A DNA stretch of 63,524 bases, counting the filler, from Nanobdellota archaeon (GTDB lineage: Archaea > Nanobdellota > Nanobdellia > Woesearchaeales > CAZZGN01), in assembly GCA_051819665.1 (NCBI GenBank). It is 7 parts of 5 records of this genome, joined end to end, with 100 filler letters (N's around TTAATTAATTAA, not from the genome) between each part and the next. Parts side by side here need not be neighbours in the genome. Positions count along the whole stretch, not along the records: positions 12,961 to 40,043 come from JBNJDG010000010.1; 6 more parts are not named here. One strand, given 5' to 3'. Below are positions 1-27,628 of this stretch, one piece after another. The notes under the pieces are model-generated. The model saw only the letters and a program-made list of their open reading frames with translations, was not told the DNA's origin and searched no databases. The translations under genes were made by a program, and so were the position numbers. Positions within the stretch are counted from its first letter, which is position 1, and each line of letters opens with the position of its first letter.

Positions 1-136
1 TCTCCCGTCTGTCTGGGATAAGATGGATGATGGGGAGACATTCCTTTCACGTTTATGCACGAAGGGGAACATGGAAGAAGATTGCTGGAAGGATCCTGAA
101 ACTCATATATATCTCTATACAGCAGAGATGGTCTGA
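1..136 (+). CDS. 3' end of AmmeMemoRadiSam B/A fusion protein (partial; copy of 27652-29022)
   Basis: Reads ...LPSVWDKMDDGETFLSRLCTKGNMEEDCWKDPETHIYLYTAEMV*, matching the C-terminus of 27652-29022. Confidence 0.85.
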   Translation, partial: LPSVWDKMDDGETFLSRLCTKGNMEEDCWKDPETHIYLYTAEMV

Positions 137-159
137 GTGGGGTATTAAGAAATTAGAAA

Positions 160-246
160 CGCCGCCGCCCGGATTCCCACATAAGGGCCTTGCCCTATAT
201 CAACCCAGGTACGATAATGCTACACAAGGTAGCATAATGGGACAGA
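160..246 (-). repeat. 87-bp unit downstream of tRNA-Ser(CGA): 71-nt insert (176-246) plus duplicated tRNA 3' end (160-175)
   Basis: CGCCGCCGCCCGGATT occurs at 160-175 and 247-262. The intervening 71 nt are identical to 12973-13043, 13060-13130 and the reverse complement of 27439-27509. Confidence 0.95.
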
Positions 247-330
247 CGCCGCCGCCCGGATTTGAACCGGGATATCCCGAAGGAAACCTGCTCTCGAGGC
301 AGGCGCACTACCAGATTATGCGACGACGGC
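247..330 (-). tRNA. tRNA-Ser(CGA) (copy of 27355-27438)
   Basis: Cloverleaf with acceptor stem GCCGTCG/CGGCGGC, anticodon arm CCTGC-CTCGAGA-GCAGG, long variable arm and GGTTCAAATCC T-arm. Confidence 0.95.
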
Positions 331-363
331 ATAACACTTCCGGAGAAAGAGAGCTTCTATTTA

Positions 364-1197: not shown

Positions 1198-1248
1198 CAC
1201 GCTGTAGAACTTGCATTTCATTAAAAAAGTTTGTGGAATCCTTTGCTC

Positions 1249-2067
1249 TCAATTATTCCTGAAGTAGTCTATGAACCTGTCCAGCAAAACTTCCATGCTT
1301 ATATTATTCAGGTAACAGGATTTATCAACTCTCATTGATACGGGCTTTATCTCCGCTTTTGTATTATTTATGAATTCCTCTTTATCCTTTTCTCCTGTCT
1401 CACCATATAGGGGTCTTATCTCATTCATGTTGTACAGCTCTGCAAGACGGTCGGCAGTCTTTATCATATCGGCTGGAACCATGTCATAATCCTTTATATG
1501 GGACACGAGGTCTTTCCCGTTCATATTTTCCTGAGTATGATGCTCGATCTCGTCCATGTGCTTCTCCAGTATATATTCATCAAGTCCAGAAACTATGAGG
1601 GCCATAGCGAGCGGATCCTTCCCGAACTCATTATTGATATTATCTATAAGTGAATAGATCCTCTCTATATCGAATCTCTTAGTGTTCTCTATAGTGTCAT
1701 GAAGGTTAGAAGCGGTTATTAGGTCATCTATATTATATGCCTTCCTGAATTCATCAGAGCTTTCGTTAAGCAGCCTTGCAGTAATGTATCCGACATTCGC
1801 TCCATGGACATACTCTGGAAAGTCATTGTTCCTGTATTGTCCTTTATGATTCTCCTGGGAAAAGATAAGAGATCTCCGGGCTGTACCTATGTCAATCTCA
1901 TGATTGGTCCTGTTGTAGAACCTCGCAATCTCTCTGGCAATTTGCGGCTCATCCTTCTTCTTAGAAGCAATGCGTCTTATGTATTTCATCCCTTTTACTA
2001 TTCTTAAGGTTGTTTTTTCCTCCATACTAAGGCCCGGTTCAGTGTCTTCCATTAACTCCTCTCTCAT
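1249..2067 (-). CDS. HD-domain protein, RelA/SpoT-hydrolase (Mesh1/SAH)-like (copy)
   Basis: Motifs HKGQYR..FPEYVH, LHDTIENT and IKTADRL. Confidence 0.6.
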   Translation of the reverse strand: MREELMEDTEPGLSMEEKTTLRIVKGMKYIRRIASKKKDEPQIAREIARFYNRTNHEIDIGTARRSLIFSQENHKGQYRNNDFPEYVHGANVGYITARLLNESSDEFRKAYNIDDLITASNLHDTIENTKRFDIERIYSLIDNINNEFGKDPLAMALIVSGLDEYILEKHMDEIEHHTQENMNGKDLVSHIKDYDMVPADMIKTADRLAELYNMNEIRPLYGETGEKDKEEFINNTKAEIKPVSMRVDKSCYLNNISMEVLLDRFIDYFRNN

Positions 2068-2098
2068 AGTTATAAATGGGAAGGAGTAATATATAAAA

Positions 2099-2437
2099 TT
2101 ATCTGCTCAATTCGTCAATAGCGTCCTGGACAAGTTTCACATACATCAGGCTTGGTCCTCCTCCCATCAATGCAGCTACCCAACTTGACTCGAGTATCTC
2201 TTCCTTTGTTGCGCCTTTATCCAGACAGTTCTTCACATGGATCGAGATGCACCAGTGGCACTGTGCTTTGACTGATAATGCTACTGCTATGAGCTCTTTA
2301 GTCTTTCCGTCAAGGGCCCCGTCTTTCTCCACTGCTGTCATGAACTCATGGAAACCTTTCATACTCTCTGGTGTAGCTTCCTTGAGCTTTTTCATGTTTT
2401 CTCCCTGATCATTCAGATAATCTTTTATCTCTCCCAT
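2099..2437 (-). CDS. Carboxymuconolactone decarboxylase / AhpD-family protein (copy)
   Basis: LDGKTKELIAVALSV..QCHWCISIH and ALMGGGP. Confidence 0.9.
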   Translation of the reverse strand: MGEIKDYLNDQGENMKKLKEATPESMKGFHEFMTAVEKDGALDGKTKELIAVALSVKAQCHWCISIHVKNCLDKGATKEEILESSWVAALMGGGPSLMYVKLVQDAIDELSR

Positions 2438-2536
2438 TATATCACCTGTGTTTTTCTTCCGCCTGAAGGTTTAAAAAGATTATGAAAGACCCTTCATCAG
2501 AAAGATTATTATATGTGTTTTAGTCTTTGGATTAGG

Positions 2537-3076
2537 ATGATAATCACAATAACCGGCCTTCCGGGCAGCGGGAAATCGACAGTGGCGAAGGAACTTGCCG
2601 ATTCTCTCGGTTTCGGTTATCATTCGGTCGGCGGCCTGATGAGGGAGATCGCAGAAGAGAGAGGACTCACCCTCATGGAACTTGGTAAGCTCGCAGAGAA
2701 TGATAAGTCGATAGATAAGCTTCTTGACCAGAGGCAGATTAACCTCGGGAAGGAGAAGGATGATATCATCATAGATTCAAGGCTCGGATGGTACTTCATA
2801 CCCGGCTCTGTCAAGATCTTCCTTGACGCTGACCTTGAGGTCTCTGCGAGGAGGGTCTTCGATGAAAAGAGAGATGATGAGGGATACAATACCTCTTTTG
2901 AGAAGACGAAGGAGAACATGCTTGCCAGGATGGATTCGGAGAAGAAAAGGTATAAGCATTATTATGGTGTTGATTATTTCGATAAGGGCCATTATGACAA
3001 GGTCATCGACACTTCTGATAAGTCAATAGCAGAGATAGTTGAGAAGATAAAGGATTTTATAGCAAACTTTAAATAA
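2537..3076 (+). CDS. cmk: Cytidylate kinase, archaeal type (copy)
   Basis: P-loop GLPGSGKST, IDSRLG, KIFLDA and RYKHYYGVD. Confidence 0.9.
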   Translation: MIITITGLPGSGKSTVAKELADSLGFGYHSVGGLMREIAEERGLTLMELGKLAENDKSIDKLLDQRQINLGKEKDDIIIDSRLGWYFIPGSVKIFLDADLEVSARRVFDEKRDDEGYNTSFEKTKENMLARMDSEKKRYKHYYGVDYFDKGHYDKVIDTSDKSIAEIVEKIKDFIANFK

Positions 3077-3108
3077 AAGTTTTATAATAGAGATACTGGG
3101 TAATAATT

Positions 3109-3477
3109 ATGTTAGAAACAAGAGGATGGATAAGTCTCATATTGGGTTTCATTACAACAGCATTCGGAGCGATTCCGCTATTGAACAACATTGGCTTGAT
3201 AGGTTTTGATCTCCCTTTCAGCATAGTCGGTATAATTCTGGAGATATTGCTCATCATGGGCGGCCTGTTCCTCCTTTTCGACTCTGCTCACGAGGATAAC
3301 CTGAAATGGGTCAGTGTGATTGTCGGCCTTATAATAATAATCTTGGGCGCTTTCCCCCTGGTTAACAATTTCGTCAACATAGGTTTTAGTCTTGGAGATG
3401 TTCTGGGGATAGCCATAGTAAAGAATATAATACTCATTGTCTCGGGAATACTCCTTATCTTTGGAGCTGGGGATTAG
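3109..3477 (+). CDS. Hypothetical four-TM membrane protein (copy)
   Basis: 122-aa hydrophobic ORF with an internal two-fold repeat (GAIPLLNN / GAFPLVNN). Confidence 0.7.
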   Translation: MLETRGWISLILGFITTAFGAIPLLNNIGLIGFDLPFSIVGIILEILLIMGGLFLLFDSAHEDNLKWVSVIVGLIIIILGAFPLVNNFVNIGFSLGDVLGIAIVKNIILIVSGILLIFGAGD

Positions 3478-4300
3478 TCTTCTCCAGTATCTTCCCTTTA
3501 TTTGTATAAACGCTGGAGAGCCTCTCGAAGAAAGATTTTTCCTTCTCCATCTCTACAATATCCACCCTGTCAAGTTCATTTTCAAGGTAGGACTCTGCAT
3601 CCTCCATGGTTCCCAGTTCGTCAACAAGGCCTTCCTCTTTGGCTTCAGAACCGAGGAACCATTCTCCTGTCGCCAGCTCTTCCACTTCCTCTCTCTTCAT
3701 CTCTCTGTTCTCGGCCACTTCGTCTATGAAGAAACCCTCTATTGTCTCAAGCTTATCCATCATCATGTCTTTCTCTTCTTCCGAGAGTTCCTTGAACGGA
3801 GAGCCCATGTCCTTATATTCTCCTGAAACGAGTCTCCTGTATGTCACATTATGATCCTCGAGAAGTCCTGAGAGCTCGAGATAGGAAGAAGTCACACCTA
3901 TACTTCCTGTTATGGACATCCGGTTGGCTATGATATGGTCTGTGGCCGTAGCTACCCAGTAAGCACCTGAAGCTCCTGCATCCCTTATCGCAGAGACGGT
4001 CGTCATATTCAGGTCCTTAATCTTCTGCCCGATCTCATCGGAAGCTACAGGGGATCCTCCTCCTGAGTTTATCCTGAATATTATGGCTTCCATGCCCCTG
4101 TTCTCCGCCTTCTCTATAAGCTCTATGATCTCTTCTGAGCTTGTGACGGAAGAGAAACTGTCTCCGCCTGTAGTTGCTATCATCCCGTTAATGGATATCT
4201 CTGCCACATTACCCATCTCTTCTGTATTGAAGAAACCGGCGATGAAATTGCTGAGCAGGAAGAGCACGATAAGGAAACCCAGTACATATCCCCATCTCAT
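3455..4300 (-). CDS. sppA: Signal peptide peptidase SppA, S49 family (copy)
   Basis: INSGGGSP, GASGAYWVA, ITGSIGV and SGEYKDMGSP. Confidence 0.92.
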   Translation of the reverse strand: MRWGYVLGFLIVLFLLSNFIAGFFNTEEMGNVAEISINGMIATTGGDSFSSVTSSEEIIELIEKAENRGMEAIIFRINSGGGSPVASDEIGQKIKDLNMTTVSAIRDAGASGAYWVATATDHIIANRMSITGSIGVTSSYLELSGLLEDHNVTYRRLVSGEYKDMGSPFKELSEEEKDMMMDKLETIEGFFIDEVAENREMKREEVEELATGEWFLGSEAKEEGLVDELGTMEDAESYLENELDRVDIVEMEKEKSFFERLSSVYTNKGKILEKTNPQLQR

Positions 4301-4368
4301 ACGACCTGCACCATCCTTAGGCCTGCTATCCTCTCTGAGAGTCTTCTCCCTGTCATTACCATGTATAT

Positions 4369-12960: not shown

Positions 12961-13130
12961 GTGGCCCGGATTCCCACATAAGGGCCTTGCCCTATATCAA
13001 CCCAGGTACGATAATGCTACACAAGGTAGCATAATGGGACAGACGCCGTGGCCCGGATTCCCACATAAGGGCCTTGCCCTATATCAACCCAGGTACGATA
13101 ATGCTACACAAGGTAGCATAATGGGACAGA
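12961..13130 (-). repeat. Tandem 87-bp repeat (at least 2 units, running off the contig) downstream of tRNA-Ser(GGA)
   Basis: CGCCGTGGCCCGGATT at 13131 (tRNA end), 13044 and partially at 12961, separated by identical 71-nt inserts 13060-13130 and 12973-13043. Confidence 0.95.
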
Positions 13131-13214
13131 CGCCGTGGCCCGGATTTGAACCGGGACATCCCGAAGGAAACGAGATTTCCAGTCTCGCGCAATACCAGAT
13201 TATGCGACCACGGC
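13131..13214 (-). tRNA. tRNA-Ser(GGA)
   Basis: Acceptor stem GCCGTGG/CCACGGC, anticodon arm CGAGA-CTGGAAA-TCTCG, long variable arm and GGTTCAAATCC. Confidence 0.95.
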
Positions 13215-13347
13215 ATGAATGTATGTATTACCTGGTCTGGGCTATAGGAATCCTTTATAAAGTTTTTTCCTCGATGACCGCCAGAAAATAACATATAGGA
13301 TTCAGGATAAAAAGACTTAAATAAATGGATGATTAAGACAATAACCT

Positions 13348-13395
13348 ATACAACATATTGTATTGTTACATGACTATAAACACAACATATTGTGT
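13348..13395. promoter_or_regulatory. Tandem NrdR-box-like operators upstream of nrdJ
   Basis: ATACAACATATTGTAT (13348-13363) and ACACAACATATTGTGT (13380-13395), 32 bp apart. Both match the bacterial NrdR consensus acaCwAtATaTwGtg. Confidence 0.75.
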
Positions 13396-13445
13396 TCTTA
13401 TGGTTTTTTTCGTCTCGAAATGATGACAATAAGGTGGGTGTAGCT

Positions 13446-16019
13446 ATGGACAAGGAGAATAAACTTAAAGAAATGTTTGAATTTAAGACAAAACACCACA
13501 ACAAAGTAAATCAGGAATTCCTGACCTCATATAAGGAATTGTTCTATAAGCTTAAGGAAAAACAGGAGAAAGGAAGTTTGTCCCTTCATGAGGATTATCT
13601 CAACGGTAATGAGCTTGCCCAGAACATCTACCAACAGAAATACTACCTCAAGGATCTCAACGGAGAAGTCATCGAAGACAGGCCGGAGGATGTGTTCACG
13701 AGGATTGCAGCCTCTCTCGCATCGGTAGAGGAGAAGAACAAACAGAGAGAGAACGCAGAGAATTTCTATAATATGCTTTATCAAGGCTATTTCATGCCAG
13801 GCGGCAGGGTCATCGCAGGAGCCGGCGATCTATTCAGATTGAAGACCCTGGCAAACTGTTTCGTCACTGTGATCGGTGATGATAACATAGAATCCATATA
13901 CAATGCCGCCTATGACTGTGCAAGGACATATTCATACGGTGGAGGCATAGGCCTCGATATATCAAAATTAAGGCCGAAAGATTCGGTCGTCCACAATGCT
14001 GCAGATAAATCAACAGGCGCTGTCTCTTTCATGGAACTCTATTCCCTGACTACGGGCCTTATTGGCCAATCAGGCAGAAGAGGAGCCCTCATGATCACCA
14101 TTGATGTTAAACATCCTGATGTGATGGAATTCATCAAAGTGAAACAGAATTCCAACTGGGCGACCAAGCAGGTAGTCCAGCAATGCGAATGGTCAGGAAA
14201 GTTCGATAAGGAAAGCCTTCAGGAGATAGAAAAACAGGTCAGGGAGAACACACAGGTCAGGTTCGCCAACATCAGCCTGAAAGTCAGCGATGAGTTCATG
14301 AAGGCCGTTGAAGAGACCAAAGAGCACGAAGAAGGCTCGATCCTCCTCTATAAGAAACATGACAAGGAAAGGATATACAACAAACCCCAGGACAAGGATA
14401 CTGATTATTCATACAAGCTCCCCTCGAAGGATGTAGAGAATTATGAGATAGTAAAAGAGTTCAGGAATATCGATGAACTCAACGAATATCTGGGCAAGAA
14501 CATAAGTGAAGAGGACCTCAAGGATACAGAGAAGAGGGACATCTACGGAGATTATCTTGTAGAAGGAGGAGAATACGATTATGCGATCCACTACACAGGA
14601 GAGTTCATGACCTATTATGGATCAAAGAACACTCATGATGTAAGGAAGATAATCAACGCGAAAGATATATGGGAAGCTTTTGTCTCAGGGAATTACTCTA
14701 CTGCAGAACCAGGTCTTATATTCTGGGACACGATGAGCAAGTATTCGCCTTCAAACTATATAGGGAAAAGGATCTCTTCCACAAATCCATGCGGAGAAGT
14801 GCCGCTTGAAGACGGAGGCGCATGCAACCTCGGCTCTTTGAACCTCTCGAGGTTTGTGAAGAAAGGCTATAGTGATGAAGCAGAGATCGACTGGGAAAGC
14901 CTGAAAGACACTACGAAGAATGTCGTAAGGATGCTCGATAATGTCATAACATGGAACGTTGCACTGAATCCACTCGAGAAACAGAGGAAGGCTGCGAAAG
15001 AAACAAGGAGGCTGGGAATAGGTGTTATGGGCATAGCAGATATGCTCAATCAGATGGGCATTGGTTATGATGAAGAAGAAGGCCTGAAGATGGTAGAGAA
15101 GGTGACGAACACCATCACGAACACCTGTTATGAAGCTTCCGCAGAGCTTGCAGGTGAAAAGGGTCCCGTCCCCATCTGGGATTTCGATAAATACAGCAGA
15201 GGAAAGTTCTTCAAAGAAGTGCTATCTGAAGAAGTAAAGGAGAAGATAAAGGAGAACGGGCTGAGGAATGTAGCTCTTACATCCATCGCACCGACTGGCT
15301 CGATATCCAATATCGTCCTCGGGTATAAGGGAGAGAAAAAGAATTACATCGGAGTCTCTGGAGGAATAGAACCCATATTCTCCCTTTTCTACGAGAGAAG
15401 ATCAGAAAGCTTCGGCAATAAGAAATTCAAGGTATTCCATTCCACTGTCCAGGCTTATCTGGACGAGAAAGGCCTAAATGAGAAGGCGAAGGATGCCAAG
15501 AACACCGATGATCTGAAAGATATGCTTCCCGAACATTTCTTCAGGACATCCCATTTCATCAAACCCGAGAACAGGGTAAGGATGCAGGGGACCTGCCAGG
15601 GTTACATCGACCACAGCATATCCTCCACCATAAACCTTCCCGAAAGCATAGAACCAGAGACCATATCGGATGTATACCTCAGATCCTGGAAGAACGGCCT
15701 CAAAGGAGTCACCATATACAGGGACGGCAGCAGGTATCCGATCCTGAGCGTCGCAAAAGAGATGTCAGAGTTCCAGGAGAATAAGGACAAATTATTCAGG
15801 GTCAAGGAGGGTGGTGAAGAGAGGATCATGAAAGGAGACGATGTATTCATGGTAGACAATACCCTCACTACGCCTTTCCACGCCATGAAAAAAGGTTATG
15901 ATGTTGAAGAGTCCAGAGATGATAAAGGGGAAGTGGAAAAGGATGATTCAGGCGGCGGAGGAGGCGCCTGTAAAGTGAAGTTCGAGAACGGAAAATTAGT
16001 GAAGGGATGCGGAGACTGA
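13446..16019 (+). CDS. nrdJ: Class II (adenosylcobalamin-dependent) ribonucleotide reductase
   Basis: FMPGGR, ANCFV, GGGIG, GQSGRRGALM, EPGLIF, TNPCGE, CNLGSLNL, IAPTGS, KGVTIYRDGSR and a C-terminal Cys pair. Start taken at MDKENK. Confidence 0.95.
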   Translation: MDKENKLKEMFEFKTKHHNKVNQEFLTSYKELFYKLKEKQEKGSLSLHEDYLNGNELAQNIYQQKYYLKDLNGEVIEDRPEDVFTRIAASLASVEEKNKQRENAENFYNMLYQGYFMPGGRVIAGAGDLFRLKTLANCFVTVIGDDNIESIYNAAYDCARTYSYGGGIGLDISKLRPKDSVVHNAADKSTGAVSFMELYSLTTGLIGQSGRRGALMITIDVKHPDVMEFIKVKQNSNWATKQVVQQCEWSGKFDKESLQEIEKQVRENTQVRFANISLKVSDEFMKAVEETKEHEEGSILLYKKHDKERIYNKPQDKDTDYSYKLPSKDVENYEIVKEFRNIDELNEYLGKNISEEDLKDTEKRDIYGDYLVEGGEYDYAIHYTGEFMTYYGSKNTHDVRKIINAKDIWEAFVSGNYSTAEPGLIFWDTMSKYSPSNYIGKRISSTNPCGEVPLEDGGACNLGSLNLSRFVKKGYSDEAEIDWESLKDTTKNVVRMLDNVITWNVALNPLEKQRKAAKETRRLGIGVMGIADMLNQMGIGYDEEEGLKMVEKVTNTITNTCYEASAELAGEKGPVPIWDFDKYSRGKFFKEVLSEEVKEKIKENGLRNVALTSIAPTGSISNIVLGYKGEKKNYIGVSGGIEPIFSLFYERRSESFGNKKFKVFHSTVQAYLDEKGLNEKAKDAKNTDDLKDMLPEHFFRTSHFIKPENRVRMQGTCQGYIDHSISSTINLPESIEPETISDVYLRSWKNGLKGVTIYRDGSRYPILSVAKEMSEFQENKDKLFRVKEGGEERIMKGDDVFMVDNTLTTPFHAMKKGYDVEESRDDKGEVEKDDSGGGGGACKVKFENGKLVKGCGD

Positions 16020-16108
16020 GCTATCCCTTTCTTTTTCTTAATAAAAGAGTATCTTCTATAAACTTTAAATATCTCCAATACTTCAACCCCCTTGGAGTGA
16101 TTCGTATA

Positions 16109-16678
16109 ATGGCAAAAATATCTATTATCTATGGTTCTGTAAGAGAGGAAAGACAAGGCATAAAGGCCGCAAGGTTCATCAGGAATGAAGTAAAAGAAAG
16201 AGGTCATGAAGCCACTCTGATCGATCCGAAAGAATACGATATACCTTTCCTTGACAGGATGTACAAGGAATTTGAGAAAGCACCAGAGGATATAGAAAAG
16301 ATAGGGAAAATCCTGGATGAGTCTGATGGTTTCATGATAGTGAGCGGAGAATACAACCACAGCATTCCTCCTGCATTAAAGAACCTGCTCGATCATTTCC
16401 AGAAGGAGTATATGTTCAAACCGAGTGCGATAGCCTCTTATTCGGCAGGGTCTTTCGGAGGGGTCAGAGCAGCTGTACATCTGAGAGCCCTCCTGGCGGA
16501 ACTCGGCTGTCCTACTATTTCAAGCATATTCCCCATGTCTGAAGTACAGGACAGTTTTGATGAGAAAGGTAATGCTATAGAAACCGCTTATGAGAAGAGA
16601 ATAGAAAAATTCCTTGATGAATTCGATTGGTATGTAGAAGCGCTTAAAGAACAAAGGAAAAAGGGAACGCCCTTTTAA
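16109..16678 (+). CDS. NADPH-dependent FMN reductase (flavodoxin-like)
   Basis: [26 protein letters not shown] and [12 protein letters not shown]. Confidence 0.92.
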
Positions 16679-16986
16679 GCCTCAACCATCTCGATCTCGA
16701 TGTTAAGGCCTTCAGGTATAGGTACTCTCATTACCAGCCTAAGGGCCCTCTCATCAACACCCAGGTCGATAAGCCTTTTGTGAACCCTCATCTCGTACCT
16801 TTCCCATGAAGCTTTACCCTCCCCGTCAGGGGATTTCCTTGTGGTAATCCTTAACTTCTTTGTGGGCAGAGGAACAGGTCCCCTCATCTCCACTCCTGTC
16901 TTATCAGCTATATCTCTAATCTCCTGAGTGACCTTGTTTACTTTACCAATATCCGTGCTTGCTAGTTTTATTCTTGCTTTCTGCAT
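16675..16986 (-). CDS. rpsJ: Ribosomal protein uS10
   Basis: [17 protein letters not shown] and [14 protein letters not shown]. Confidence 0.97.
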
Positions 16987-17021
16987 TTTCTCTACCCTTA
17001 CAAATTAAAAAAAAGAAGGAA

Positions 17022-18314
17022 TTACTCCTTCTTCTGTAGGTCGATACACATACCTGCACCGACTGTAGCACCTGAGTCCCTTACTGCAAACCTTGACATC
17101 TGCGGGATCTCTTTCTGTGTCTCGATCACCAGTGGAGTCGTCGGCTTAACCTTAACTATAGCTGCATCGCCGTTCTTGACGAAGTCAGGATTCTCTTCGA
17201 GAACCTGGCCGTTAGCCGGGTTAAGCTTCTTCTGGATCTCCGTGATCTGGCATGCCACCTGTGCTGTATGGACATGGAATACAGGTGTATAACCTACAGT
17301 CACAACACTCGGATGGTTGAGTACAACCAGCTGAGCTGTAAACTCTGTAGCCACGGTCGGCACATTGTCTGAATGTCCGAGTACATCTCCTCTGGCAATG
17401 TCCTTCTTACCGATCCCTCTTACGTTGAAACCGATATTGTCTCCAGGACCTGCCTGGTTGTGCTGGGAATGATGCATCTCGATGGTCTTTACCTGACCGG
17501 AAGCGCCTTTTCCGTCCCTGCCCGGAACTACTGTGATCTTATCATTCACCTTGATCACACCTGTCTCAACCTTACCAACAGGTACTACACCGATTCCTGT
17601 GATGTTATAAACATCCTGGATCGGCAGCCTCAGTGGAAGGTCAGTAGGTCTCTGGACAGGCTCGAACTTGTTAAGCTCCTCAAGCAGAGTGCCTCCGCTC
17701 CACCAGGACATGTTGTCTGACTTTTTAACTACATTATCTCCTGTCAGAGCAGCTACAGGCACAAACCTGACCTGCTTCTCAACATTCCATCCTGCAGGCG
17801 CAGCGTGTTTCTTGACATCCTCTACAACTTTGTTGTACCTGTCTTCAGAGAATTCTACCCCTGAGATGTCCATCTTGTTAACCGCGACGATCATCTGATT
17901 CACACCGAAGACCTTGGAAAGTCTCAGGTGCTCCAGAGTCTGTGCGTTAACTCCGTCATTAGCCGCAACAACAAGAACTGCTGCATCAGCCTGGGATGTA
18001 CCTGTGATCATGTTCTTCACGAAATCCTTGTGACCAGGTGCATCGATTATTGTGAAATTGTATTTGTCAGTCTCGAACCTCTTGTGTGCAAGGTCGATCG
18101 TGACTCCTCTTTCTCTCTCTTCCTTAAGGCCGTCCATTGCGAAAGCGAACTCGAATCCGCTCTTGCCAAGTTCTGCTGCCTTATCCTTCAGTCTCCTCAT
18201 TGTCTGTTCGTCTATTGACCCAGTGTCGAACATAATCCTTCCAACTGTTGTGGATTTACCATGATCGACATGTCCAATGAAAACCAAATTCATGTGTTCT
18301 TTTTCCTTAGCCAT
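17022..18314 (-). CDS. tuf: Translation elongation factor aEF-1A
   Basis: [30 protein letters not shown] and RFAVRD. Confidence 0.98.
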
Positions 18315-18412
18315 TATGACCCCTCCTTATATCCCAATAGGTTACCTCTGGGATTTTGTTTTTATATTTAAAGGTTATGATTTGAAATCACAACCGCGGA
18401 ACCCGGAAAGAC

Positions 18413-20590
18413 TCACTCAGATTCCTCATCCTCCTGTTTCATGCCTTTCCTGTTCCTTATCCTGGAAATCACTTTTTCCTGCAGCTCTTCCGGAAGCTTC
18501 TCAAAGATCTGGTCCACCAATGAACTTGAACCTCTTCCGCCGGTGGCTGACCTCAATTCACTTGTAAGGCCGAACATCTCTGCCACAGGGAGTTTTCCTC
18601 TCACTACTGTAAGTTTGCCTTCCTGCTGCATATCAAGGAGCTGTCCTCTCTTGTTGGAGATGAGCTTGGATATCTCACCCATATGCTCTTCAGGCGCCTC
18701 GAATCTCAAGGTCTGCACAGGCTCAAGGAGCTTTGGCTTCGCCTGTTTTATAGCTCCCCTTATACCTTCTCTCACAGCCGGATATAGCTGAGCAGGACCT
18801 CTGTGGATAGCATCCTCGTGAAGCTTCGTGTCGACAAGGCTCACTTTCATGCCAAGTCCCGGTTCACCTGCAAGAGGTGCTGAATTCATGACATCCTCGA
18901 ACATATCGAGGACCATCTCGATGATCTCTCCAATATGGACCTCTCCTCTTGTCTTCTCGACGAAGATGTTACCATTATGAATATCCTTGACCTTGTCTGC
19001 CTCTTTTGTATCCATCCCAAGAGAGACAAGCTTGTCCCTGAGTTCAAGGTCTTTCTTCTTGACCCTTCCCTCATAAAGTTCTCCGGATTTTATAGCATCC
19101 ATTATCTCTTTTGGGAGAGGCTCGACAACGAAATAAAGCTTGTTATGCTTATTCGGCGATTTCCCCTCGAAAGGCGAAGGCGTGCTGGATTCTATGGCCT
19201 CCCTGTAGACCACGATAGGAGGCGAACTCTGTACCTGCACATTCTTCTCCTGGAGGATCCTATTCTCAAGGACTTCCAGATGAAGCTCTCCCATACCGCT
19301 AAGGAGATGCTCGCCCGTCTCTTCATTGATCTCTACCTTTATAGACGGATCTTCCTTGCTTACCTGCTGAAGCACTTCAACGAGCTTCGGGAGATCTGCC
19401 GGATTCTTGGCCTCGATCGCCTTTGTTACGACAGGGTCGAAGATATGGGTTATAGCCTCGAAAGGTTCCTGTTTCTCCTCTGTTATCGTCTCTCCGGGAT
19501 AAGCTTTCGGACCCACAATCCCGATTATGTTCCCGGCAGGTACGTTATCCACTATCTCTCTCTTCTCTCCGTTATATACGAATACCTGCTGGATCCTCGA
19601 ATCCTGTTTACCGACATTCAGATGGACCCTCTGGCCCTTCTTGATGGTTCCGGAGAACAATCTGCCTGCAGCTACTTCACCTGCCTGCGGATCAACGACG
19701 ATCTTGGTCATCACGAAAGCTACAGGCCCGTTAGGATCTGCCTTGGCAAGGGATTTCCCGAATTCACTCTCGGAATCACCGTGCCAGATCTTGGGGATCC
19801 TGTACTGCTGTGCATCCACCGGATTCGGCAGATGAGCGATTACCGCGTTAAGGACGACCTCATGAACAGGCGCTTTCTTAGCGAGCTCATTATAGTCTCC
19901 TCCCGGCTCATAAGCATCGTAGATATCCTTGAAATTCACTTCATTCTCTTTCATATAGGGCATGGACATACCCCAGTTATGGAAAGCAGAACCGAAACAT
20001 ACAGTTCCATCCTCCACCTTCACGTTCCATTTACCTTTCAGCTCCTTAGGCGAAAGGTCATCGATCATCTTGTTCACCTGGTTGATGATCTTCACGAACT
20101 TTGCCTGCATCTGTTCAGGTGAGAGCTGAAGTTCTTTAATGAGCCTGTCAACCTTGTTGATGAAAAGGATGGGTTTTACCCTCTCCCTCAGAGCCTGCTT
20201 GAGAACAGTCTCTGTCTGGGGCATAACACCCTCTACCGCACAGGCAACCACAATGGTTCCGTCAACAGCCCTCATAGCTCTCGTGACGTCACCACCGAAA
20301 TCAACATGCCCCGGTGTATCAATCAGGTTGATCAGATAATCTTCATCCTTGTACTTATGCACCATCGATACAGCTGCTGAATCAATAGTAATCCCTCTCT
20401 CCTGCTCATCATCGTGAAAATCAAGCTGCCTGGCATCCCCTGCAAGGTCTGAAGACATCATGCCGGCGCCTGCAAGCAGATTATCCGAGAAAGTGGTCTT
20501 ACCGTGATCGATATGTGCACAGATAGCTATATTCCTTATGTTCTTAGGGTTCTTCATCGTTGTAGTTACCCTTTCTACCATCTTTGCCAT
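18413..20590 (-). CDS. fusA: Translation elongation factor aEF-2
   Basis: AHIDHGKTT, DTPGHVDF, NKVD and diphthamide loop HEDAIHRGPAQ. Confidence 0.98.
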   Translation of the reverse strand: MAKMVERVTTTMKNPKNIRNIAICAHIDHGKTTFSDNLLAGAGMMSSDLAGDARQLDFHDDEQERGITIDSAAVSMVHKYKDEDYLINLIDTPGHVDFGGDVTRAMRAVDGTIVVACAVEGVMPQTETVLKQALRERVKPILFINKVDRLIKELQLSPEQMQAKFVKIINQVNKMIDDLSPKELKGKWNVKVEDGTVCFGSAFHNWGMSMPYMKENEVNFKDIYDAYEPGGDYNELAKKAPVHEVVLNAVIAHLPNPVDAQQYRIPKIWHGDSESEFGKSLAKADPNGPVAFVMTKIVVDPQAGEVAAGRLFSGTIKKGQRVHLNVGKQDSRIQQVFVYNGEKREIVDNVPAGNIIGIVGPKAYPGETITEEKQEPFEAITHIFDPVVTKAIEAKNPADLPKLVEVLQQVSKEDPSIKVEINEETGEHLLSGMGELHLEVLENRILQEKNVQVQSSPPIVVYREAIESSTPSPFEGKSPNKHNKLYFVVEPLPKEIMDAIKSGELYEGRVKKKDLELRDKLVSLGMDTKEADKVKDIHNGNIFVEKTRGEVHIGEIIEMVLDMFEDVMNSAPLAGEPGLGMKVSLVDTKLHEDAIHRGPAQLYPAVREGIRGAIKQAKPKLLEPVQTLRFEAPEEHMGEISKLISNKRGQLLDMQQEGKLTVVRGKLPVAEMFGLTSELRSATGGRGSSSLVDQIFEKLPEELQEKVISRIRNRKGMKQEDEESE

Positions 20591-20596
20591 TTATAA

Positions 20597-21067
20597 TCAC
20601 CTTCTCTCGTCATCCGCATATAAGAGCTCGAAATCGACCCTCTCATACACAAAAAGTTCATCTTCGTTGAAAAATCTCTTAATCTCATCCTCTGCTACTT
20701 CTTTTGATTCTGATGCATGGATTACATTAGACTGGGTGCTCATAGAAAAGTCCCCTCTTACAGTACCCGGCATAGCCTTGGCACCATGGGTCTCTCCCGC
20801 AAGCTGCCTTACCACTCTTACTGCATCAAGCCCCTCCACTGCTAACAGTATAGAAGGGGAGTGCATCATGAATTCCTTGAGCCTTTTGAAGAAAGGCTTA
20901 TCAGAAAGATGCGAATAGTGCTCATCCAGAGTCTTCTCGTCAAGACGGGCCATCTTAAGCCCCATTATCTTCAGACCTTTCTGTTCGATCCTGCTTATGA
21001 CCTTCCCAACAAGGGATCTGTTAAGAGCATCGGGCTTTATTATTATAAGGGTCCTCTCTATCTTCAT
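20597..21067 (-). CDS. ndk: Nucleoside diphosphate kinase
   Basis: ERTLIIIKPD, PGTVRGDF and NVIHAS. Confidence 0.95.
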   Translation of the reverse strand: MKIERTLIIIKPDALNRSLVGKVISRIEQKGLKIMGLKMARLDEKTLDEHYSHLSDKPFFKRLKEFMMHSPSILLAVEGLDAVRVVRQLAGETHGAKAMPGTVRGDFSMSTQSNVIHASESKEVAEDEIKRFFNEDELFVYERVDFELLYADDERR

Positions 21068-21249
21068 TTTGCCTCCTCCTTTATCCTCTTGTGCTCTTCG
21101 GTCCATTTAGTGGTTCTTGCCTTTCTCTTCAGCTCAAGCATGTTCTTCTCACATTTCCTGCTGTCAAAATAAAGGACCTTACCGTCCTTCTTAACGAACA
21201 TCTTGCCTTTACCCGGTGATATTTCCTTACTACAGAAGCTGCATTTCAT
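21064..21249 (-). CDS. rpl24e: Ribosomal protein eL24
   Basis: KCSFC..ISPGKGKMFVKKDG...KCEKN...KWT. Confidence 0.95.
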   Translation of the reverse strand: MKCSFCSKEISPGKGKMFVKKDGKVLYFDSRKCEKNMLELKRKARTTKWTEEHKRIKEEAK

Positions 21250-21250
21250 T

Positions 21251-21508
21251 TTAAGCCTTACCTCTTCCGCCACGCTTCATCTGCTTGGCTTCGATCTCAG
21301 TCTCTCTGAGCATAAGGGTGTCACCTATCTGGACAGGGCCTCTGACGTTCCTCCTGAGGATCTTATTCTTATCCCTGCCTTCAAGGACCTTGCACCTTAC
21401 AAGGGTCACTGACCCCTGGGTCCCGGCCTTCTCCAATACCTCTTCAACGCTTGCAGGGACTGCATCCGAAAAAGAGACTGATTTTGAATTGTTATTGTCC
21501 TTTGCCAT
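21251..21508 (-). CDS. rps28e: Ribosomal protein eS28
   Basis: VRCKVLEG...RRNVRGPVQIGDTLMLRETEIEA. Confidence 0.95.
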   Translation of the reverse strand: MAKDNNNSKSVSFSDAVPASVEEVLEKAGTQGSVTLVRCKVLEGRDKNKILRRNVRGPVQIGDTLMLRETEIEAKQMKRGGRGKA

Positions 21509-21513
21509 TCTGA

Positions 21514-21855
21514 TCACTTAAGGTTTTCCGCAACCTGTTTAACCTTGTCTTTTGCGTCTCCTTCTTCAACAATCGCTATGCTTCCTGCTCCTACTCCAAG
21601 ACCTGCTGCAACGCCGAGCTCCTCTTTGGATGCTGCTGTTACACAGGGTATACCTTTCTCCTTAGCAAGGAGTGGCAGATGCATTACAACTTCTGGTGGG
21701 TTAACGTCATTAGCCACAAGGACAAGCTTTGCCCTCTGCTTCTCAATCGATTTTGTGACTTCGTTGGTCCCTTTCTTCAGCTTTCCTGATGATTTTGCAA
21801 GTTCTACAGCCTCAAGGGCCGCTTCCATCGTTTCTTTTGATACTTCTTCAGCCAT
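21514..21855 (-). CDS. rpl7ae: Ribosomal protein L7Ae / eL8
   Basis: KKGTNEVTKSIE, DVNPPEVVMHLPLL and SKEELGVAAG. Confidence 0.96.
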   Translation of the reverse strand: MAEEVSKETMEAALEAVELAKSSGKLKKGTNEVTKSIEKQRAKLVLVANDVNPPEVVMHLPLLAKEKGIPCVTAASKEELGVAAGLGVGAGSIAIVEEGDAKDKVKQVAENLK

Positions 21856-21890
21856 TCTAATTACCTCCAATGAGCGTGCAGAAAATTAGC

Positions 21891-21933
21891 ACCTCATTCA
21901 GACACCATTCTGATGTCATCATCAATCATAGGT
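21891..21933 (-). promoter_or_regulatory. Kink-turn (C/D-box) motif in the L7Ae 5' leader
   Basis: Minus strand ATGATGA-CATC-AGAAT-GGTGT-CTGA lies between a TATA-like ATTTATAAA (about 21957-21965) and the GGAGGT RBS of rpl7ae. Confidence 0.7.
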
Positions 21934-22026
21934 CTGGCTTAGGGAAAGGACAGGCATTTATAAATATTTTGGATTATCGCTTTCCCGGACAATAGATTAA
22001 TATTCCTCTGGCTCTCCCCCGTATTC

Positions 22027-22389
22027 ATGGACATACTGGAAAGACTCGGTAAGTCAGGATTCAGGGGCTCATTCCGGCTGGAAGACACCAGCTATATAAA
22101 AAAGAAGGGCCTTGGGATCATAGAGAAGCACGCTTATGAATTCCTTGATAAGAACATAAGAGAAAGACCCGCGAATGACGGGAAGCAAACACCATGGAAA
22201 GGCCATCCTGTCTTCACAGCCCAGCATGCTACCGCTACATGCTGCAGGAAATGCATCGAAAAATGGCATAAGATCCCTAAAGGAAAGAAGCTTGATGAGA
22301 AAGACATGAACTATCTGAAAGACATAATAATGAGATGGATAAAGAGAGAATCCCCTCAGATGAAAGAGAAACAGGAAAGATTATTTTGA
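22027..22389 (+). CDS. DUF4186-family protein
   Basis: PANDGKQTPWKGHPVFTAQHATATCCRKCIEKWH. Confidence 0.92.
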   Translation: MDILERLGKSGFRGSFRLEDTSYIKKKGLGIIEKHAYEFLDKNIRERPANDGKQTPWKGHPVFTAQHATATCCRKCIEKWHKIPKGKKLDEKDMNYLKDIIMRWIKRESPQMKEKQERLF

Positions 22390-22396
22390 GACCAGG

Positions 22397-22576
22397 CTAA
22401 TCACTCTCATCCTCACCATATCCGCATTGGGTGCATACCCTTACCTTGGTAGGTTCTACACCGGCACCGCCGAACTTATGCTGGCTGGCACTGACTACCT
22501 TGAAAGAATGCGAACCGCATCTCTTGCAGGTAAACTCATATTGATAATTATCACCGGTCACTTCCCTGACTGCCAT
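22397..22576 (-). CDS. Small zinc-ribbon protein (59 aa, below the ORF-track cutoff)
   Basis: MAVREVTGDNYQYEFTCKRCG...VRVCTQCGYGEDESD*, with two CxxC motifs. TATA-like TTTATAAA about 25 nt upstream. Confidence 0.75.
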   Translation of the reverse strand: MAVREVTGDNYQYEFTCKRCGSHSFKVVSASQHKFGGAGVEPTKVRVCTQCGYGEDESD

Positions 22577-22670
22577 ATTATAATATAGGAGGTAAAGATT
22601 TTATAAATATTTCCATAATCTGGAGAGCAACAGAAACATTTTTAAATGATATGAGAATCCCAAGCTCTCT

Positions 22671-22928
22671 ATGGAAGGAACAATCACCAATTTCAGGATG
22701 GGAAGACATCATCAGAAGGACAGCCACATGGTAGTTACTGTGAAAGATGTTGACACCAAAGAGAAAGCAGAGAAACTCCTGGGAAAGAAGACAGTCTACA
22801 AGACTGAAGCAGGGAAAGAGCTAAATGGAGAAGTAAGAGCTTCCCACGGCAACAGCGGGGCAGTGAGAGTTGTTTTCGAGAAAGGCATGCCCGGCCAGGC
22901 GGTAGGGAAAAAGGTTGAGATCCAATAA
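22671..22928 (+). CDS. rpl35ae: Ribosomal protein eL33 (L35Ae)
   Basis: ITNFRMGRHHQ and HGNSGAVRVVFEKGMPGQAVG. Confidence 0.93.
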   Translation: MEGTITNFRMGRHHQKDSHMVVTVKDVDTKEKAEKLLGKKTVYKTEAGKELNGEVRASHGNSGAVRVVFEKGMPGQAVGKKVEIQ

Positions 22929-23388
22929 TCCCAACGAAAAGATTCTAGGAGCATTTTTCTTATTGAGGAGAGCCATAGCTTTCATCATAGATTTTATAAT
23001 CGTCGATTTTGTCGTCCTCAGTGCTTTCCAGCCCATAATCAGGAACACAGTAGGTGAAGGCAGCATATCTGAACTGACAGAAACCCTCCGGTCAAGCCCC
23101 GGACTGGTGAATCAGCTCTCTACAATGATGTTTATCGCTTCACTTCTCATCGTACTTTATTTCACGATCCTTGAATGGAAGTTCTCACAGACGCCGGGAC
23201 AGAGACTGATGAGTCTCAGGGTAATGGCTGAAGGGCCCAGATTCTGGCAATATCTGCTCAGTAACGTTTTTATATTTCCTTTCTTCCCCTTCATCCTGTT
23301 ATGGCTAATAGATCCGATATACATGGTAATGACAGGGAGAAGACTCTCAGAGAGGATAGCAGGCCTAAGGATGGTGCAGGTCGTATGA
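22915..23388 (+). CDS. RDD-family membrane protein (start uncertain)
   Basis: RRAIAFIIDF, YFTILE..SQTPGQRLMSLRV and RRLSERIAG. Confidence 0.8.
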   Translation: MRSNNPNEKILGAFFLLRRAIAFIIDFIIVDFVVLSAFQPIIRNTVGEGSISELTETLRSSPGLVNQLSTMMFIASLLIVLYFTILEWKFSQTPGQRLMSLRVMAEGPRFWQYLLSNVFIFPFFPFILLWLIDPIYMVMTGRRLSERIAGLRMVQVV

Positions 23389-24230
23389 GATGGGGATATG
23401 TACTGGGTTTCCTTATCGTGCTCTTCCTGCTCAGCAATTTCATCGCCGGTTTCTTCAATACAGAAGAGATGGGTAATGTGGCAGAGATATCCATTAACGG
23501 GATGATAGCAACTACAGGCGGAGACAGTTTCTCTTCCGTCACAAGCTCAGAAGAGATCATAGAGCTTATAGAGAAGGCGGAGAACAGGGGCATGGAAGCC
23601 ATAATATTCAGGATAAACTCAGGAGGAGGATCCCCTGTAGCTTCCGATGAGATCGGGCAGAAGATTAAGGACCTGAATATGACGACCGTCTCTGCGATAA
23701 GGGATGCAGGAGCTTCAGGTGCTTACTGGGTAGCTACGGCCACAGACCATATCATAGCCAACCGGATGTCCATAACAGGAAGTATAGGTGTGACTTCTTC
23801 CTATCTCGAGCTCTCAGGACTTCTCGAGGATCATAATGTGACATACAGGAGACTCGTTTCAGGAGAATATAAGGACATGGGCTCTCCGTTCAAGGAACTC
23901 TCGGAAGAAGAGAAAGACATGATGATGGATAAGCTTGAGACAATAGAGGGTTTCTTCATAGACGAAGTGGCCGAGAACAGAGAGATGAAGAGAGAGGAAG
24001 TGGAAGAGCTGGCGACAGGAGAATGGTTCCTCGGTTCTGAAGCCAAAGAGGAAGGCCTTGTTGACGAACTGGGAACCATGGAGGATGCAGAGTCCTACCT
24101 TGAAAATGAACTTGACAGGGTGGATATTGTAGAGATGGAGAAGGAAAAATCTTTCTTCGAGAGGCTCTCCAGCGTTTATACAAATAAAGGGAAGATACTG
24201 GAGAAGACTAATCCCCAGCTCCAAAGATAA
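23385..24230 (+). CDS. sppA: Signal peptide peptidase SppA
   Basis: S49 motifs INSGGGSP, GASGAYW and ITGSIGV; ATGA overlap with the RDD gene. Confidence 0.92.
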   Translation: MRWGYVLGFLIVLFLLSNFIAGFFNTEEMGNVAEISINGMIATTGGDSFSSVTSSEEIIELIEKAENRGMEAIIFRINSGGGSPVASDEIGQKIKDLNMTTVSAIRDAGASGAYWVATATDHIIANRMSITGSIGVTSSYLELSGLLEDHNVTYRRLVSGEYKDMGSPFKELSEEEKDMMMDKLETIEGFFIDEVAENREMKREEVEELATGEWFLGSEAKEEGLVDELGTMEDAESYLENELDRVDIVEMEKEKSFFERLSSVYTNKGKILEKTNPQLQR

Positions 24231-24576
24231 GGAGTATTCCCGAGACAATGAGTATTATATTCTTTACTATGGCTATCCCCAGAACATCTCCAAGACTAAA
24301 ACCTATGTTGACGAAATTGTTAACCAGGGGGAAAGCGCCCAAGATTATTATTATAAGGCCGACAATCACACTGACCCATTTCAGGTTATCCTCGTGAGCA
24401 GAGTCGAAAAGGAGGAACAGGCCGCCCATGATGAGCAATATCTCCAGAATTATACCGACTATGCTGAAAGGGAGATCAAAACCTATCAAGCCAATGTTGT
24501 TCAATAGCGGAATCGCTCCGAATGCTGTTGTAATGAAACCCAATATGAGACTTATCCATCCTCTTGTTTCTAACAT
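24208..24576 (-). CDS. Hypothetical four-TM membrane protein
   Basis: Hydrophobic 122-aa ORF. Confidence 0.7.
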   Translation of the reverse strand: MLETRGWISLILGFITTAFGAIPLLNNIGLIGFDLPFSIVGIILEILLIMGGLFLLFDSAHEDNLKWVSVIVGLIIIILGAFPLVNNFVNIGFSLGDVLGIAIVKNIILIVSGILLIFGAGD

Positions 24577-24608
24577 AATTATTACCCAGTATCTCTATTA
24601 TAAAACTT

Positions 24609-25148
24609 TTATTTAAAGTTTGCTATAAAATCCTTTATCTTCTCAACTATCTCTGCTATTGACTTATCAGAAGTGTCGATGACCTTGTCATAATGGCCCT
24701 TATCGAAATAATCAACACCATAATAATGCTTATACCTTTTCTTCTCCGAATCCATCCTGGCAAGCATGTTCTCCTTCGTCTTCTCAAAAGAGGTATTGTA
24801 TCCCTCATCATCTCTCTTTTCATCGAAGACCCTCCTCGCAGAGACCTCAAGGTCAGCGTCAAGGAAGATCTTGACAGAGCCGGGTATGAAGTACCATCCG
24901 AGCCTTGAATCTATGATGATATCATCCTTCTCCTTCCCGAGGTTAATCTGCCTCTGGTCAAGAAGCTTATCTATCGACTTATCATTCTCTGCGAGCTTAC
25001 CAAGTTCCATGAGGGTGAGTCCTCTCTCTTCTGCGATCTCCCTCATCAGGCCGCCGACCGAATGATAACCGAAACCGAGAGAATCGGCAAGTTCCTTCGC
25101 CACTGTCGATTTCCCGCTGCCCGGAAGGCCGGTTATTGTGATTATCAT
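24609..25148 (-). CDS. cmk: Cytidylate kinase, archaeal type
   Basis: GLPGSGKST P-loop and IDSRLG. Confidence 0.9.
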   Translation of the reverse strand: MIITITGLPGSGKSTVAKELADSLGFGYHSVGGLMREIAEERGLTLMELGKLAENDKSIDKLLDQRQINLGKEKDDIIIDSRLGWYFIPGSVKIFLDADLEVSARRVFDEKRDDEGYNTSFEKTKENMLARMDSEKKRYKHYYGVDYFDKGHYDKVIDTSDKSIAEIVEKIKDFIANFK

Positions 25149-25247
25149 CCTAATCCAAAGACTAAAACACATATAATAATCTTTCTGATGAAGGGTCTTT
25201 CATAATCTTTTTAAACCTTCAGGCGGAAGAAAAACACAGGTGATATA

Positions 25248-25586
25248 ATGGGAGAGATAAAAGATTATCTGAATGATCAGGGAGAAAACATGAAAAAGCT
25301 CAAGGAAGCTACACCAGAGAGTATGAAAGGTTTCCATGAGTTCATGACAGCAGTGGAGAAAGACGGGGCCCTTGACGGAAAGACTAAAGAGCTCATAGCA
25401 GTAGCATTATCAGTCAAAGCACAGTGCCACTGGTGCATCTCGATCCATGTGAAGAACTGTCTGGATAAAGGCGCAACAAAGGAAGAGATACTCGAGTCAA
25501 GTTGGGTAGCTGCATTGATGGGAGGAGGACCAAGCCTGATGTATGTGAAACTTGTCCAGGACGCTATTGACGAATTGAGCAGATAA
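25248..25586 (+). CDS. CMD / AhpD-family protein
   Basis: KELIAVALS..CHWCISIH. Confidence 0.9.
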   Translation: MGEIKDYLNDQGENMKKLKEATPESMKGFHEFMTAVEKDGALDGKTKELIAVALSVKAQCHWCISIHVKNCLDKGATKEEILESSWVAALMGGGPSLMYVKLVQDAIDELSR

Positions 25587-25617
25587 TTTTATATATTACT
25601 CCTTCCCATTTATAACT

Positions 25618-27354: not shown

Positions 27355-27438
27355 GCCGTCGTCGCATAATCTGGTAGTGCGCCTGCCTCGAGAGCAGGTT
27401 TCCTTCGGGATATCCCGGTTCAAATCCGGGCGGCGGCG
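27355..27438 (+). tRNA. tRNA-Ser(CGA)
   Basis: 84-nt cloverleaf with anticodon CGA, long variable arm and discriminator G; CCA not encoded. Confidence 0.95.
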
Positions 27439-27628
27439 TCTGTCCCATTATGCTACCTTGTGTAGCATTATCGTACCTGGGTTGATATAGGGCAAGGCCC
27501 TTATGTGGGAATCCGGGCGGCGGCGTTTCTAATTCCTTAAATACCGAATTTGAACCTCCGGTTCATGCTCAATAACTCCGTTATTGGTACCAAGGTCGCT
27601 TCGCTCCCCCGGAATCCGGGCGGCGGCG
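27423..27628 (+). repeat. Array of three tRNA 3'-end copies separated by two different structured inserts
   Basis: AATCCGGGCGGCGGCG at 27423 (within the tRNA), 27510 and 27613. Insert A is 27439-27509 (71 nt) and insert B is 27526-27612 (87 nt). Confidence 0.95.

Follow-up and report, generated by a model that had tools for sequence, protein, structure and literature searches.

The stretch of DNA analysed here (63,524 nucleotides, hereafter the window) comes from a Nanobdellota archaeon of the order Woesearchaeales (GenBank assembly GCA_051819665.1). The element in question is a 71-nt insert that lies directly behind two serine tRNA genes and is each time followed by a second copy of the 3' end, or tail, of the tRNA that it adjoins. 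The first locus, Ser(GGA), is found at the very start of contig C10 (window position 12961 is C10 position 1), with the minus strand as the tRNA sense strand by direct reading of the sequence. The intact tRNA-Ser(GGA) gene spans 13131..13214 (minus strand; Rfam tRNA 55.9 bits over the full model; ARAGORN 13129-13215). Its last 16 nt, AATCCGGGCCACGGCG (13131..13146), run from A58 in the T-loop to the discriminator base G73 and form the working tRNA 3' end. They are followed on the same strand by a first 71-nt insert with two hairpins, assigned to type A (13060..13130), a second tail copy identical to the first at 16/16 positions (13044..13059), a second insert identical to the first (12973..13043) and the first 12 nt of a third tail copy, cut by the start of C10 (12961..12972). 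The repeated unit is 87 nt long (a 71-nt insert plus a 16-nt copy of tRNA positions 58-73), and C10 holds two full units and the cut third tail within 12961-13146.

The second locus, tRNA-Ser(CGA), lies on the plus strand of the same contig (27355..27438; ARAGORN 27354-27440). Its own tail, AATCCGGGCGGCGGCG (27423..27438), is followed by an insert identical at 71/71 positions to that of Ser(GGA) (27439..27509), a second tail copy with the local sequence AATCCGGGCGGCGGCG (27510..27525), an 86-nt insert unrelated to the 71-mer, here called type B (27526..27611), and a third tail copy (27612..27627), all on the plus strand. An earlier note on this DNA had reported that the 71-mer is identical at the two loci and that the 16-mer behind it is the tail of the local tRNA; our reading agrees on both counts. 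The insert and tRNA-Ser regions form 188-nt inverted repeats with 90% identity, about 14 kb apart, which might serve for inversion or gene conversion.

The window strings together pieces of several contigs (the ends of C1 and C2 and the whole of C10, C14 and C64), linked by runs of N that flank a TTAATTAATTAA linker. They belong to a genome bin of 1.12 Mb in 64 contigs (96% complete, 4.45% contamination), and the sequencing-run records give a salt lake as the habitat. The C1 piece also shows the 71-mer behind Ser(CGA), on the minus strand and without type B (160..330: tail copy 160-175, insert 176-246, tRNA 247-330). C1:141-6000 is the reverse complement of C10:14585-8725 with 99.97% identity over 5861 nt, and both tRNA-Ser genes occupy mirrored positions in the two contigs, so window 1-4368 and the Ser(CGA) region of C10 are a single locus assembled twice. 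The copy at 160-330 is a second assembly from a strain variant, and the 71-mer therefore occurs at two tRNA loci, not three. It also follows from the double assembly that the bin contains at least two strain variants. About 14.6 kb is common to C1 and C10 at 99.97% identity (window 1-4368 against 22000-27830), and the differences are limited to the inserts 3' of both tRNA-Ser genes and to a flank of 177 nt that is 97.7% identical. Around a 14.3-kb segment (window 13131-27438) the two genes point outward, in the same orientation in both assemblies.

In the C1 version of Ser(GGA), one 87-nt unit is followed by a different insert with its own repeat. The earlier claim of at least two tandem 87-nt units in a contig that ends inside the array is correct for C10, the one contig that backs it, but the C1 assembly has a single unit, and the unit number at Ser(GGA) is either polymorphic or collapsed in assembly. 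Six contig ends of the genome lie within tail-repeat arrays (C10, C41, C49, C51, C11 and C47), which shows that the arrays break the assembly. As at the other contig ends with arrays, tRNA-Leu(TAG), exactly at the start of C14 (window 40143-40228), has its 3' end towards the break, and inserts left out of the assembly may follow it as an array.

In a set of 56 non-redundant pairs of insert and tRNA, we found that the second tail is that of the local tRNA, with at most one mismatch in 42 of the 56, and that non-consensus T-loop bases at positions 58-60 (ATT, ACT, AAC, AGT) are copied into it as well. The flanking repeat is target-derived and not borne by the element, as the earlier note had argued. 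That note had further proposed CCCGGTTCAAATCCGGGC, shared by the two serine targets, as a possible recognition sequence, a proposal that finds no support here: the inserts follow tRNAs with many different T-stems, and only the T-loop is common to them. Family members are preceded by tRNAs for Glu, Lys, Arg, Gln, Val, Pro, Leu, Met, His and others. The tRNA-Val(TAC) gene carries CCGGTTCAAATCCGGG and has no insert behind it. Pairing between the insert core and the local T-stem was also considered and dropped, being confined to the Ser copies and not seen for Glu, Lys or Arg.

The two ends of the duplication differ in precision. The element ends with GTGG plus one nucleotide and the tail copy begins at A58, whereas the far end of the repeat is variable: exact identity extends 0-15 nt past N73 in 40 of 42 pairs (mode 2-3, against a mode of 0 expected from simple composition), usually ending within the T-rich trailer. 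Two array cases have longer repeats, of 37 and 59 nt. The base at position '57', just before the tail copy, is G in 30 of the 31 tRNAs that have G57; in tRNAs with A57 it is A in 5, G in 11, T in 8 and C in 1. The change of A57 to G or T as a signature of the copying of a modified base is no more than a lead, because the T cases come from genomes in which all carrier tRNAs have A57 and the pattern is thus confounded by lineage. Mismatches in older second tails are concentrated at positions 62-63, mostly to A, so T-stem formation by the second tail would be blocked; the first tail always pairs with its own acceptor strand. In minimum-energy folds the second tail competes with the first for the acceptor 5' strand in three of four precursors (both Ser and Lys, not Glu). 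The element termini show no consistent inverted repeat.

The layout recurs elsewhere in the genome. A copy of the tRNA's own tail lies within 500 nt downstream in 9 of the 31 tRNA rows scanned, corresponding to 7 of 29 distinct loci: Ser(CGA), Ser(GGA), Ser(TGA), Glu(TTC), Lys(CTT), Arg(TCT) and Thr(TGT). Two more tail-repeat tRNAs, intron-bearing and missed by ARAGORN, are on C3 and C16. Relatives of the 71-mer with about 80% identity stand behind Glu, on C2 and as a tandem pair at the start of C41, and more distant type A relatives are found on C11, C16, C5 and C3, the last with two 116-nt units in tandem in the contig interior. The same or related cores carry Ser(CGA), Ser(GGA), Glu, Lys or Arg tails. 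Inserts of types B, C and D are unrelated in sequence to type A and have an identical layout. Type B also forms a tandem array behind tRNA-Ser(TGA) on C49. Type C (G000:C1:14644-14740 and G000:C5:53873-54277) has a hairpin with an apical GAGC-N3-GCGA motif followed by a CAAATT...AATTTG hairpin, with repeats of 30 nt, tRNA flank included; in relatives, type A copies usually have this apical motif in their hairpin 1.

A covariance model was built from eight distinct copies of the own genome and searched against 150 relatives of the same order (E<=0.01). It matches 31 of them, nearly all in different families. Among the 27 best loci, 23 are directly behind a tRNA or a tRNA tail copy and one is between 16S rRNA and tRNA-Ala; the others are two chance matches in coding sequence and one locus at a contig start. 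An exact 21-base motif, GGTTGATAAGG-N3-11-CCTTATGTGG, was also searched in contigs of one genome per species and found at 65 loci in some 45 species and more than 40 independent assemblies. Archaeal titles stand on 63 of the 65 loci (38 Woesearchaeota, 7 Nanoarchaeota/Nanoarchaeia, 16 third-party bins titled 'uncultured Methanosarcinales' and 2 'archaeon'), and one of the two loci titled 'bacterium' (L101) is a chance match in a coding region. The family is limited to Woesearchaeota-type (DPANN) archaea, and the 71-mer is a member of this lineage-wide family of 65-110-nt, non-coding elements with two hairpins. A chromosome assembled as a single contig has three perfect 98-nt units behind tRNA-Pro(CGG), and in the complete AR15 chromosome two tRNA-Pro genes and tRNA-Thr(GGT) are each followed by a copy. 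The other exact GGTTGATAAGG sites of the own genome all fall in coding sequence without the hairpin and were set aside.

A few sites depart from the tRNA rule. In genome G148 (L032:1443-1653) the element lies between the 16S rRNA 3' end and tRNA-Ala, and behind it the last 14 nt of 16S, with the anti-Shine-Dalgarno end, recur as a near copy. The duplicated target is GGATCACCTCCTTT in this case, and the 16S sequence GGCTGGATCAC is similar to the T-loop GGTTCGAATCC. Two groundwater Woesearchaeota records (L048 and L062) have tandem copies at a site without a tRNA call, with an 11-nt repeat, CGAGYGTCGTG, between the copies.

No Rfam 15 family matches the insert in a scan of the array region at E<=10, which returned tRNA and a chance match to nrdJ RNA (15.2 bits, E 3.4). 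A full-text literature search found no paper describing such elements, and the family is apparently undescribed. The nearest papers deal with tRNA fragments left by integrated elements (PMC9897764, PMC3293823).

Both hairpins covary, with compensatory changes. In the eight distinct copies of the own genome, 10 of the 14 base pairs show such changes, and in an alignment of 84 copies from this genome and the relatives (81 distinct), double changes occur in 13 of the 14 pairs. Paired cells amount to 93.2% in the 81 distinct copies against 74.1% after shuffling. The covariation score is 0.437 against 0.145 for shuffled alignments (0 of 500 shuffles reach 0.437) and at most 0.061 for slid-partner controls; the alignment was fitted with the covariance model and so favours structure, a point to be held against the reading developed below, although the margin is large nonetheless. 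Among stem mismatches, G.U exceeds A.C by 43:11 in helix 1 and 16:1 in helix 2, which argues that the structure is selected in the tRNA-sense single strand and not as a double-stranded palindrome. The selected form is either the RNA of the pre-tRNA trailer or single-stranded DNA of the top strand. The most conserved part is a 3' module composed of a short YAC/GUG lower stem, an AGGUUG bulge, an AUAAGG/CCUUAU upper stem whose loop is variable, and the final GUGG plus one base. Readings of this module as a K-turn, C/D box, hammerhead or promoter were dropped after comparison by eye with the consensus motifs.

The inserts also turn over. In one genome of the same family, from a sister genus, Ser(CGA), Ser(TGA), Glu and the tRNA of the C3 type are free of inserts; behind Ser(GGA) stands an unrelated one of 49 nt, and its tail copy starts at T60, not A58 (G001:C47:6431-6700, L111). 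At L111 an N-gap with a duplicated tRNA 5' half is found just upstream. Type B (27526-27611) is present in C10 and absent from C1 and from one contig of run X3, where the joint without it has a depth of 3.8 (the four runs are recorded as metatranscriptomic and are represented by assembled contigs). In these runs the allele without type B was the only one found as a joint, and among the contig pieces listed for them none spans any of 12961-13146. The recent spread claimed earlier is thus borne out as far as turnover goes (unit number, the 86-nt insert, empty tRNAs in the sister genus); the identity of the Ser copies at 71/71 positions, from which it had been argued, may equally be due to gene conversion.

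We give about an even chance to the reading of the 71-mer as a non-autonomous mobile mini-element with a target-derived duplication. It is the simplest account of the precise 3' end, the variable 5' part, the target-derived repeat, the stacks and arrays, the fast turnover and the sequence-conserved, strand-specific module, and from these we infer mobility as such and a single-stranded intermediate, RNA or DNA. The usual target of such mini-elements would be the T-loop of a tRNA gene; a sequence that resembles one, like the 16S 3' end, would be hit only rarely. The event would duplicate the target from nucleotide 57/58 through the discriminator and a few trailer bases, so that the tRNA 3' end stays intact and the element comes to lie within the 3' trailer, with a spare local tail behind it. 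Stacks and tandem arrays could then arise by re-insertion into the regenerated site or by unequal recombination between tails, and the machinery would recognise the conserved 3' module as a single strand in the tRNA sense.

Several results weigh against this reading. No candidate enzyme was found, as the own genome has 0 matches to Cas1 (PF01867), 0 candidates for reverse transcriptase (PF00078), and neither TnpB nor the Y1 transposase TnpA. Only one clear tyrosine recombinase, of Xer size (132 bits), is present, besides one match below threshold (19.6 bits), and neither adjoins any copy. Among the 150 relatives, reverse transcriptase occurs in 32 (9 of 31 carriers and 23 of 119 non-carriers) and Cas1 in 8, including one nominal carrier whose element match is false; neither tracks with the element. 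There is no insert above about 190 nt, and hence no parent element, among some 90 loci (inserts 65-190 nt), and the exact motif has 0 matches in 2.9 million viral contigs. Most transposases produce repeats of a set length, whereas here the length varies. We found no pair of empty and filled sites of unambiguous direction; the polymorphism of type B could equally be explained by deletion between repeats, and the 71/71 identity of the Ser copies could reflect gene conversion between the inverted repeats.

In a speculative extension of the mini-element reading, which we consider quite improbable, the moving unit would be the processed pre-tRNA trailer RNA itself, making it a SINE-like (short interspersed element-like) archaeal retroposon without a recognisable reverse transcriptase. 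The 5' end would be set by the 3'-processing cut after N73 and the 3' end shielded by the hairpin ending in GUGG; the RNA would then be copied into DNA at the T-loop together with the tail of the target transcript, up to the modified Cm56/m1I57. The same process could seed T-loop introns once the first tail decays. Copying from an RNA template fits the strand bias, the boundary beside Cm56/m1I57, the trailer-like left part of the inserts and the variable repeat end in the T-run; it lacks a reverse transcriptase, and the A57 pattern that might have supported it is the lineage-confounded one. Cm56 and m1I57 are archaeal hallmarks (PMC7912444). Tail copies lacking an intron were rejected as proof of a spliced-RNA template: L023 has an intact upstream tRNA, and in L034 and L038 the bases before T60 are possibly element-borne.

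Passive replication or repair is the first alternative to mobility, and we hold it to be unlikely. Here template switching or unequal recombination between tRNA loci, with the universal T-loop (AATC) and the T-rich trailer serving as microhomologies, would copy a trailer segment from one tRNA locus to another and duplicate the local tail without dedicated machinery, and the identity of the Ser copies would be gene conversion. The lack of any mobility enzyme is in its favour, and the junctions fall where donor and recipient homology ends, at A58 and in the T-run. The left part of the inserts resembles tRNA 3' flank, the Ser loci are the 188-nt inverted repeats described above, and the mutually unrelated inserts of types A, B, C and D share one layout. 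However, this account leaves unexplained both the base-level conservation of the 3' module over 65 loci in some 45 species and the strand-biased covariation of the two hairpins, and double microhomology switches should be rare, yet tail repeats occur at 7 of 29 distinct loci.

It is also rather improbable, in our view, that the element is a functional RNA module or a facultative T-loop intron, transcribed in the pre-tRNA trailer. The trailer RNA would have a role of its own or, in the intron variant, the second tail would be an alternative 3' exon and the splicing endonuclease would act at 59/60 and remove the first tail plus the element. Strand-biased covariation fits an RNA of the tRNA strand, and the inserts of the own genome have no T-run before the second tail, so read-through is expected. 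The end UGGN-AA|U60 mirrors that of tRNA-Leu T-loop introns in relatives (UGAA-AG|U60), whose four bases pair with U54-U55-C56-A57, and the acceptor 5' strand pairs with the second tail in three of the four precursor folds. By inspection, the 3' half of a bulge-helix-bulge (BHB) motif can form (T-stem, AA|U bulge and a 4-bp helix with 2-3 wobbles), but not its inner helix, and copies that end in GTGGGG are out of register. In many copies the second tail has decayed, mismatches being enriched at 62-63, where they disrupt the T-stem, and it is therefore not needed as an exon; moreover, the tRNA is complete with the first tail, so the functional form needs no splicing. Only some tRNAs carry the element, the sister-genus orthologues are without it, and no Rfam family corresponds to it. 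The tRNA-Leu T-loop introns in question are 37 and 78 nt long (L038 in G062 and L034 in G095), their 3' ends pair with U54-A57 (UGAA, then AG|U60), and the L034 intron holds a second GGTTCAAA, as if nested.

That the inserts are attL/attR scars of tyrosine-integrase elements with a deleted interior is very unlikely. A tRNA 3' duplication starting in the T-loop is a textbook footprint of elements that integrate at tRNA genes (PMC9897764, PMC3293823), and one precise and one variable end would be in keeping with it. The reading fails, however, because after an attP x attB crossover in the T-loop the tRNA should carry the tail of the donor, which is never seen. The same core is found with different local tails, the first tail is always the tRNA's own, and classical att integration, against which the earlier note had argued on the same ground, is contradicted. 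The size range of 65-190 nt without any long insert among the roughly 90 loci, a single Xer-like gene as the only integrase, the absence of the motif from viral contigs, and copies behind 16S and at a non-tRNA site all speak against it as well.

An assembly artefact, either from contigs mis-joined through the T-arm that the loci share or from a cycle wrongly present in the assembly graph, might be suspected from an array at a contig end in a bin with strain variants, 4.45% contamination and redundant C1 and C10, but is exceedingly improbable given that the junction from element end through the 16-nt tail to element start requires spanning reads and that the layout is also found inside contigs C1, C2, C3 and C5, in a single-contig chromosome and in more than 40 independent assemblies.

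tRNA genes are where mobile DNA classically lands, a preference that is generally explained by integrase crossover within an element-borne copy of the tRNA. Here a whole order of ultra-small archaea has tiny, gene-less, structured inserts whose repeat comes from the target and for which the known enzymes are not at hand. This points either to an unrecognised insertion mechanism, which might employ housekeeping enzymes or pass through RNA, or to tRNA-linked RNAs of a new class, and it offers a testable route to the origin of T-loop tRNA introns and orphan tRNA fragments. In practical terms, the arrays break assemblies at tRNA genes and create false calls of tRNA fragments.

Among known systems, integrases use several sublocation classes at tRNA genes, the T-loop among them (SSV-, pNOB8- and pTN3-type in archaea). 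The inserts described here resemble tyrosine-integrase elements in the partial copy of the tRNA 3' end from the T-loop, the intact tRNA and the tandem stacking; they differ in a repeat that is not element-borne, the absence of an integrase, the insert size (65-110 nt), the repeat size (16-20 nt) and the selection of hairpins on one strand. Casposons insert at tRNA 3' ends, where the duplicated target, about 14-16 bp long, takes in the 3' end of the tRNA, and their tandem copies share duplications. The inserts are like them in target duplication and tandem copies, but Cas1 is absent from both the genome and the carriers, terminal inverted repeats are lacking and the repeat length is variable. 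The archaeal BHB introns at 59/60, with their 'intron transposition', have the same site, a similar 3' layout ([U-G-R-R][A-R]|U60) and related sequences in different tRNAs, whereas in the present case the tRNA is intact unspliced, the exon copy decays and the motif is incomplete.

The target-primed retroposition of SINEs and of long interspersed elements (LINEs) shares the conserved 3' end, the variable 5' end, the variable target duplication and the non-autonomy, and the copying of tRNA primers by retroviruses provides a parallel in which the tRNA 3' end is copied as far as the modified T-loop. Unlike in SINE/LINE systems, there is no reverse transcriptase in the genome, no link between reverse transcriptase and carriers, and no CCA in the copy; we know of nothing like SINE-type retroposition in prokaryotes. 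IS200/IS605 elements differ from the inserts, which come without TnpA or TnpB, have a long target duplication and lack inverted termini. MITEs, the miniature transposable elements with inverted repeats, and the palindrome-associated elements of IS200-IS605 are, like the present inserts, small, hairpin-bearing and non-autonomous. TnpB guide RNAs consist of a conserved scaffold followed by about 16 nt of flanking sequence, and the 71-mer, with its conserved module and the 16-nt local tail behind it, has the same arrangement.
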